Origin: Raja brachyura
Taxonomy: Eukaryota
Reading direction: 5' to 3'
DNA length: 64,000 bases
NCBI GenBank assembly: GCA_963514005.1
Contig: OY740792.1
Location: 67,084,001 to 67,148,000 of the forward strand
A model generated the notes under the pieces. That model was not told where the DNA came from and searched no databases. It saw nothing but the letters and a program-made list of their open reading frames with translations. A program made the translations under genes and the position numbers. Shown here piece by piece: positions 27,932-28,078 of this stretch. The stretch's first letter is position 1. Every line of letters begins with the position of its first letter.

Positions 27932-28078
27932 TCATAAATTATTTTTATCTTTGACCTTTAAGACGGCATATTCTGTTTCTTGGGATTGCTCGGTCCATCT
28001 CAATTCCTGTCTTTGCTGTCCCTTGTTGAAATGAACAGGTGCATAATGCAGATTTTCATTGTTTATTGAAACATTATC
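27932..28078 (-). CDS. Exon 6: terminal cytoplasmic exon with ITIM (LHYAPV) and ITSM-like (TEYAVL) motifs
   Basis: Acceptor ttttgtgttacag; phase 0 reads DNVSINNENLHYAPVHFNKGQQRQELRWTEQSQETEYAVLKVKDKNNL*. Confidence 0.88.
   Translation of the reverse strand, partial: DNVSINNENLHYAPVHFNKGQQRQELRWTEQSQETEYAVLKVKDKNNL

Follow-up and report, generated by a model that had tools for sequence, protein, structure and literature searches.

A probable inhibitory VJ-C1 receptor gene of the ray Raja brachyura and its predicted activating twin

Introduction

A single small exon on the minus strand of a Raja brachyura contig encodes two tyrosine motifs whose tyrosines lie 25 residues apart, and the question raised by this locus is whether the exon forms the signalling tail of an inhibitory receptor and, if so, to which receptors it is related. 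A sequence-only reading of the window, the 64,000-nucleotide stretch of DNA analysed here, had taken the exon for a PD-1/BTLA-type cassette of ITIM and ITSM, an ancient SHP-recruiting module attached to a V-C1 ectodomain. The gene was therefore modelled in full, compared with its relatives in other vertebrates and with further copies in the same genome, and placed in its genomic neighbourhood.

Structure of the gene

The exon is the last of a six-exon gene model on the minus strand, here called copy A, which encodes 335 aa arranged as leader, V, C1, TM, linker and tail, with all five introns GT-AG and phase-compatible. Exon 1 (47762..47810, minus strand) has its ATG at 47810 and a GT donor in phase 1, and encodes a leader that can be aligned to those of sharks and rays. 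Exon 2 (46585..46914, minus strand) encodes the V domain together with a J-like G strand and exon 3 (42560..42871, minus strand) the C1-set domain, the two being recognised by Pfam as V-set (E 1.9e-7) and C1-set (E 1.3e-13). Since a J-like G strand followed by a splice donor closes the V exon, and a heptamer scan of both strands of 46300-47000 found no CAC[AT]GTG, it is taken to be non-rearranging; copy A has the plan of a non-rearranging VJ-C1 gene, with V and J in one exon, that heptamer of an RSS absent from this interval, and a C1 exon following.

Exon 4 (32183..32284, minus strand) encodes a TM helix, with a mean hydropathy of 2.59 over 19 residues, and then a basic stop-transfer sequence. 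The helix, residues 235-254, has no charged residue, as had been said from the sequence, and it is likewise uncharged in 14/14 of the full-tail relatives described below. Exon 5 (31697..31764, minus strand), the membrane-proximal tail, is bounded by AG and GT, passes from phase 1 to 0 and shares 64 of its 68 bases with copy B, a second copy of the gene. Exon 6 (28078-27932 on the minus strand) is a terminal exon of 147 bases and 48 residues in phase 0, preceded by a pyrimidine tract and AG, and it is presumably spliced to exon 5, for which the gene models of the relatives, continuous across this junction, are indirect support. Behind its stop, at 27824..27931 (minus strand), is an out-of-frame remnant of a longer ancestral tail, identified by word matches in shifted frames and by a tblastn match to P0039 residues 280-362 that extends to 27824.

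An AF2 model of the copy A V domain has an Ig fold (pLDDT 86.5), the model of a full-length Pristis relative having a pLDDT of 43.6. A fold search with the V domain singled out no family, 50 Ig domains being tied at Z scores of 13.3 to 11.3, with SIRP and NKp30 not among the matches listed. Copies A and B both have an extra cysteine at residue 116, where the G strand begins (window 46618-46620 region), that is absent from the aligned relatives and could form a dimer bond. Within copy A there are also two repeat arrays, a 12-base tandem array of 37.7 copies in intron 5 (28264-28715) and a GC-rich array with a 51-54-base unit in intron 3 (33385-33897). Elsewhere in the window, frames at 8357-12096, 49650-54088 and 57138-57788, recognised by eye, are presumably decayed Bel/Pao-like, DIRS-like and Tc1-like transposase frames.

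Conservation of the tail motifs

The tyrosines of LHYAPVHF and ETEYAVL do indeed lie 25 residues apart in one exon, as residues 299 and 324 of the model. The motif pair by itself is no more than chance would give, as shuffling the 64-kb window 100 times yielded, per shuffled window, 1.02 such pairs at spacings of 15-40 and 0.06 at exactly 25, and it is on account of the gene context and of conservation, not of the motif pair alone, that the tail of copy A is taken as real. Conservation was followed in 14 full-tail relatives, all automatic gene models, made up of 13 from elasmobranchs (8 sharks, 5 batoids) and one from a caecilian; the spacing count excluded isoforms, incomplete models and types with a short tail (P0001, P0004, P0033, P0040-P0049, P0053, P0054), and among these P0001 and P0004 are isoforms without the motif exon and P0041 one without the TM. 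The caecilian protein is 32% identical, has four tyrosine motifs and follows the same plan. The shark and ray relatives are mostly named SIRP-like by NCBI/RefSeq, otherwise Ig-like or uncharacterised. Skate proteins appeared in none of the protein searches, which were word-limited and are not evidence of absence, and the V exon alone as query gave no homologue among 117 candidates.

Both tyrosines are present in 14/14 of these relatives, in sharks and rays alike, which together with the V-set and C1-set domains supports the view that an old two-tyrosine module is joined to a V-C1 ectodomain. The first motif, LHYAPV around Y299 (28034..28051, minus strand), conforms to (S/I/V/L)xYxx(I/V/L), and a strict ITIM is found at this place in 13/14 relatives. 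The second, TEYAVL around Y324 (27959..27976, minus strand), is better called ITSM-like than ITSM, as it had been labelled, for the strict definition is TxYxx(V/I) (PMC12151841) and copy A has L at +3. Among the relatives the tyrosine and L+3 of this motif are each conserved in 14/14 and the T at -2 in 11/14, and a strict ITSM is found in none of the 15 sequences, copy A included.

The spacing itself is not conserved. It is 25 in copy A, whereas each of the 13 shark and ray proteins has 28 and the caecilian protein has 27, so the 25 of copy A is best read as a three-residue deletion in the Raja brachyura lineage and not as an inheritance shared with PD-1 or BTLA, and the kinship proposed from the spacing falls with it. 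In the contigs of four related organisms no insertion or deletion relative to copy B is listed in the tail. Additional distal motifs, one or two each, are found in 7/8 sharks and also in the caecilian, and in 0/5 batoids, and with up to four motifs the layout of shark tails is nearer to that of SIRP-alpha.

The terminal exon of copy A thus very probably encodes an inhibitory tail, judging from its motifs and their conservation, and its two tyrosines are likely to recruit SHP-1/SHP-2. Once a ligand is bound, Y299 and Y324 would be phosphorylated by a kinase of the Src family and would then bind an SHP phosphatase through its tandem SH2 domains, so that activation would be damped. Both LHYAPVHF and TEYAVL are compatible with the preferences quoted for the N-SH2 and C-SH2 domains of SHP-2, and an Ala at pY+1 of the ITIM, as in the LHYAPV of copy A, is said to favour SHP-1 (PMC12151841). 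For PD-1 a Glu at pY-1 has been argued to make a switch to SAP unlikely (PMC12151841); because the pY-1 residue of the second motif in copy A is also Glu, SAP binding is by analogy unlikely here.

Copy B, a tandem twin

Copy B lies 300 kb from copy A and has six exons with all splice sites intact and both Ig exons free of frameshifts. The ectodomains of the two copies are 92-96% identical, and mismatches amount to 2.6% in the leader, V and C1 exons and 2.0% upstream, whereas intron 3 reaches 7.2% and the exons for TM and tail 12.3%. This pattern is as expected for an older duplication with gene conversion of the ectodomain, which is the probable explanation, and the near-identical zone, spanning the ectodomain and upstream sequence at 41100..64000 of the window (strand unspecified), is from these mismatch rates a probable gene-conversion tract. 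Such conversion would keep the two ectodomains alike. Between the copies lie young segmental duplications (~99%; G000:C12:67,186,900-67,254,194 and 67,334,268-67,399,530) as well as a 7-kb LINE-like element present three times in tandem (G000:C12:67,300,874-67,322,494).

Three changes set copy B apart, a TM Leu239 replaced by Arg, a new Tyr294 (YENL) and a TAG at the ITIM Tyr299. The Arg239, followed by only 15 hydrophobic residues, has been read in the Raja brachyura genome only. Codon 299 is covered by six records in contigs of four other organisms (runs X1, X3, X5 and X7, from four studies), three of which (X1, X5, X7), that is three other organisms, have the TAG together with Tyr294, the remaining three (X3, X5, X7) having TAT without Tyr294. 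The stop is thus no assembly error, being found in three records from other organisms. The YxN is kept in all B-type records, and INYENL fits the ITIM consensus in Raja brachyura and in two of the three other B-type records, X7 having Arg at +3, so that copy B could be a weak inhibitor. Translated behind the stop, copy B is still 83% identical to copy A, for which reason the stop may be recent; in the X5 record 4/4 changes behind the stop alter the amino acid. Also behind the stop, an insertion of ~206 bases breaks the old end of the last exon (L018:5500-5710).

It is moderately likely, going by these changes, that copy B is an activating receptor. As the stop is located in the last exon, its transcript would escape nonsense-mediated decay, its Arg would pair with an adaptor of the FcR-gamma/CD3-zeta type and its YxN might bind Grb2/GADS. 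Pairing of a TM Arg with the Asp of CD3-zeta/FcR-gamma has been described (PMC6514059), as has YxNx as a GRB2/GADS site (PMC11599192).

An older partner

A second type of gene exists in the family, with a different TM exon and a tail of 2-19 residues without a Tyr motif, represented by five proteins from Pristis, Hemitrygon, Mobula and Heterodontus. Arg stands at the outer end of the TM in 4/5 of these, P0049 having His. Adaptor-coupled activation, which had been thought unlikely, is therefore unlikely for copy A with its uncharged TM, but that view does not extend to the family, in which partners with an Arg in the TM exist. The ectodomains of partner and inhibitory protein from the same species agree at 206/207 positions in Pristis (99.5%), 204/210 in Heterodontus (97%) and 175/206 in M. 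hypostoma (85%), and an 18-row ectodomain tree groups them by lineage and not by type, the Pristis pair with support of 100/98. Shark and ray relatives model both types, which suggests that the inhibitory/activating pair is old.

Within Raja brachyura the TM exon of the partner has been found only in copy C (C12:35,915,634-35,922,742), at C12:35.92 Mb and 31 Mb from copy A. Copy C has an in-frame stop, a split V exon and an integrase-bearing retroelement between its V and TM exons, and a C1 exon was not found in it. The 46-residue Arg-TM piece of P0047, searched against the whole genome, gave no matches, though local tblastn finds the exon in copy C, and since that search missed a known exon, further copies of it may exist. 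The Raja brachyura lineage would thus have lost its old activator and probably remade one, copy B, out of the inhibitory gene, and either event may have come first.

Genomic neighbourhood

A GH47 mannosidase gene starts 165 kb downstream of copy A, with a Utp12-domain gene at 66.30 Mb, whilst copy C is 3.5 kb from the end of an SNF2-domain gene with WBP4 on its other side. We take the GH47 mannosidase, the Utp12-domain gene and the SNF2-domain gene to be MAN1A2, WDR3 and TTF2; the putative last exon of TTF2 had no match in Pfam or PDB. The human order is TTF2, TRIM45, VTCN1, LINC01525, MAN1A2, FAM46C, GDAP2, WDR3 (PMC9394163), and in salmon four genes of this human cluster stay together (PMC13752854). 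This suggests one ancestral cluster that was split by rearrangement, with the site of copy C between the SNF2-domain gene and WBP4 as the probable breakpoint.

Linkage of copy A to the MHC was considered and rejected, as class I maps to C25 and copy A to C12. Large V clusters are on C15, C30, C8 and C29, and copy A is not linked to an Ig/TCR complex; the syntaphilin and SEP-domain families map to C22 and C4, not C12. Two more genes with a single VJ exon and a C1 exon lie 5.5 Mb away (G000:C12:61,585,074-61,589,544 and 61,738,600-61,741,900), their C1 exons 98% identical and their V exons divergent, the first with a candidate TM exon bearing Arg at the outer end. A single-exon rhodopsin-family 7TM gene is found at L085:8366-9307 (Pfam E 9.3e-21).

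A B7-H4-like neighbour

Some 21-24 kb upstream of both copy A and copy B is a V-C2 gene of the B7 family, or butyrophilin-like (G000:C12:67,152,806-67,154,515), whose best PDB match is VTCN1/B7-H4 (E 1.4e-10); a third copy lies between, with copies at 67.27 and 67.455 Mb. Its V domain is missing the second cysteine, the three tandem copies differ at the F-G loop, and a clear TM exon was not found. Because of the missing cysteine and a likeness that is only distant, the gene may be a sister gene of B7-H4; in ~1.15 Mb around copies A and B there is no second, more canonical B7-H4 gene.

A predicted complex of the V domains of copy A and the B7-like protein scored 0.47 against 0.14 for the best control, the runs giving 0.04, 0.49 and 0.47, with contacts agreeing at >=39%, a partner pLDDT of >=82 and alignments not used. 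The mark set for such scores is reached by 51/78 solved and 2/108 mismatched pairs in the microbial set and by 39/65 solved and 2/126 unrelated pairs from eukaryotes, and at <=0.60 it holds only 5 of the 78 solved pairs and all 4 of the mismatches that pass. As like complexes such as PD-1/PD-L1 have already been solved, the pass may reflect likeness only, and the score is weak support, to be treated as a lead. It is accordingly a tentative and rather improbable suggestion that the B7-like neighbour is the ligand of copy A.

Relationship to known receptors

The family resembles several known systems in part. It shares with the pair SIRP-alpha/SIRP-beta1 a VJ-type V with C1-set, an inhibitory form with ITIM and TEYA-type motifs and a short-tailed partner with a basic TM, yet it differs from that pair in having one C1 and an Arg at the outer end of the TM, where SIRP-beta1 has a central TM Lys, and in a locus away from two SIRP-region markers. 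With UrIg, UrIg2 and PRARP it shares an unsplit VJ exon followed by C1, and UrIg2 (9DMX) ranks second in the profile search, whereas UrIg and UrIg2, encoded in the MHC or antigen-receptor complex, are multi-C proteins like antibodies, and PMC12227049 makes no mention of an ITIM. Copy B and the older partner, with a TM Arg and without ITIMs, are like NCRs of the NKp30/NKp46 type as these are described (PMC6514059), whereas NKp30 is a single-V protein in the MHC and the genes of the copy A family have a V-C1 plan and lie outside the MHC. The predicted opposite signalling by receptors whose ectodomains stay alike recalls Siglec-5/14 and Siglec-11/16, gene conversion being cited for the latter, although Siglecs have V-C2 lectin ectodomains and not VJ with C1. 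One hallmark of paired receptors, near-identical ectodomains with an ITIM tail on one and a charged TM and short tail on the other, is found in copies A and B and in the Pristis and Heterodontus pairs.

PD-1 as the identity of copy A was rejected, PD-1 having a single IgV and a Ser/Thr stalk without C1 and copy A having a C1-set exon. In copies P0034, P0037, P0049 and P0050 of stingrays and devil-rays the C1 exon was recently duplicated in tandem, and the resulting V-C1-C1 plan is SIRP-like.

Discussion

Taken together, it is likely that copy A is an inhibitory VJ-C1 receptor and that its tandem copy B is an activating twin, as predicted from the comparison of the two. That the tail of copy A is homologous to the PD-1/BTLA cassette, with 25 as a conserved functional spacing, was suggested by the tyrosines Y257/Y282 of BTLA and by those of human PD-1, Y223/Y248, which are also 25 apart (PMC12151841), by TEYA, which agrees with the opening of the ITSM consensus of PD-1, and by the likeness in a tandem ITIM and ITSM-like motif, the Glu before the second tyrosine and an uncharged TM. 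This is now highly improbable and largely refuted, as the relatives do not keep the spacing, PD-1 and BTLA have a single Ig domain without C1, the consensus of bony-vertebrate PD-1, (I/V)(D/E)YG(E/V)L(D/E)F, is not found in copy A, and catshark and skate have PD-1 as a gene of its own, encoding one V domain and a stalk (PMC12151841). It is also doubtful that cartilaginous fish have in this gene their orthologue of SIRP-alpha, binding CD47, even though most relatives carry the NCBI name SIRP-like, the catshark protein has SIRP-alpha as its two best atlas clusters (0.97, 0.96), SIRP-alpha (2WNG) ranks fifth in the profile search, copy A has the VJ-type V and C1-set of a SIRP ectodomain, with one C1 in place of two, and V-C1-C1 copies occur in myliobatiforms and up to four motifs in shark tails. 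Against this, IgA, UrIg2 and antibody chains outscore SIRP-alpha in the profile search, rays gained their second C1 recently, through tandem repetition of the first, and the locus lies within a block of the VTCN1-MAN1A2-WDR3 type. Human SIRPA is flanked by SNPH/NSFL1C, and the syntaphilin and SEP-domain families are away from the sequence that bears copy A; a search for the CD47 family gave no signal anywhere, controls included. Somewhat less doubtful, though still unlikely, is that the gene belongs to the PRARP/Xenopus VJC1 group as a relic of an antigen-receptor precursor and has already been described there. The plan of a single-exon VJ with C1 is the same, such genes are reported in tetrapods, some of them in regions paralogous to the MHC (PMC10751288), and the caecilian protein shares the plan and the multiple tyrosine motifs, but copy A itself is not linked to the MHC.

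The most serious alternative accepts copy A as inhibitory and holds copy B to be a decaying duplicate or a signalling-dead decoy, in which the Arg, the Tyr and the stop would be neutral changes. Pseudogenisation most commonly begins with a premature stop, the region is one of stacked segmental duplications and mobile elements, and run X3 has no B-type record at codon 299. Whilst such decay keeps a real share of the probability it is the less likely outcome, for the splice sites and both Ig exons of copy B are intact and in frame, the stop falls on the very tyrosine of the ITIM and is accompanied by the new YxN in 4/4 B-type sequences, and the Arg sits at the outer end of the TM, as in the older partner of the family. 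The reading preferred here is thus still that of an inhibitory copy A with an activating copy B.

No description of this VJ-C1 receptor family was found in the literature, where Fu 2019, Ohta 2019 and Flajnik 2023 could already name the gene. The widest interpretation, that sharks and rays keep an undescribed, antigen-receptor-like VJ-C1 pair of brake and accelerator binding an adjacent B7-H4-like protein, the accelerator having in the Raja brachyura lineage been destroyed and then made anew out of the brake through three point changes, is a speculative and improbable one. The receptor of B7-H4 was still unknown as of a 2017 review (PMC5413580), and if the interpretation were true, the copy A family would be the missing receptor of a checkpoint ligand that is still an orphan, in a place where mammals have only VTCN1 and MAN1A2.

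The PD-1-like spacing of 25 is incidental and carries no such weight. As a membrane-bound, signalling and non-rearranging VJ-C1 family, these genes would be an addition to the debate on the origin of antigen receptors. Pathogens that exploit inhibitory receptors are believed to be what gives rise to paired receptors (PMC5413580), and this locus would show an activating arm lost and remade within one lineage; because the remaking would have taken three identifiable substitutions, the origin of paired receptors would here become directly testable.
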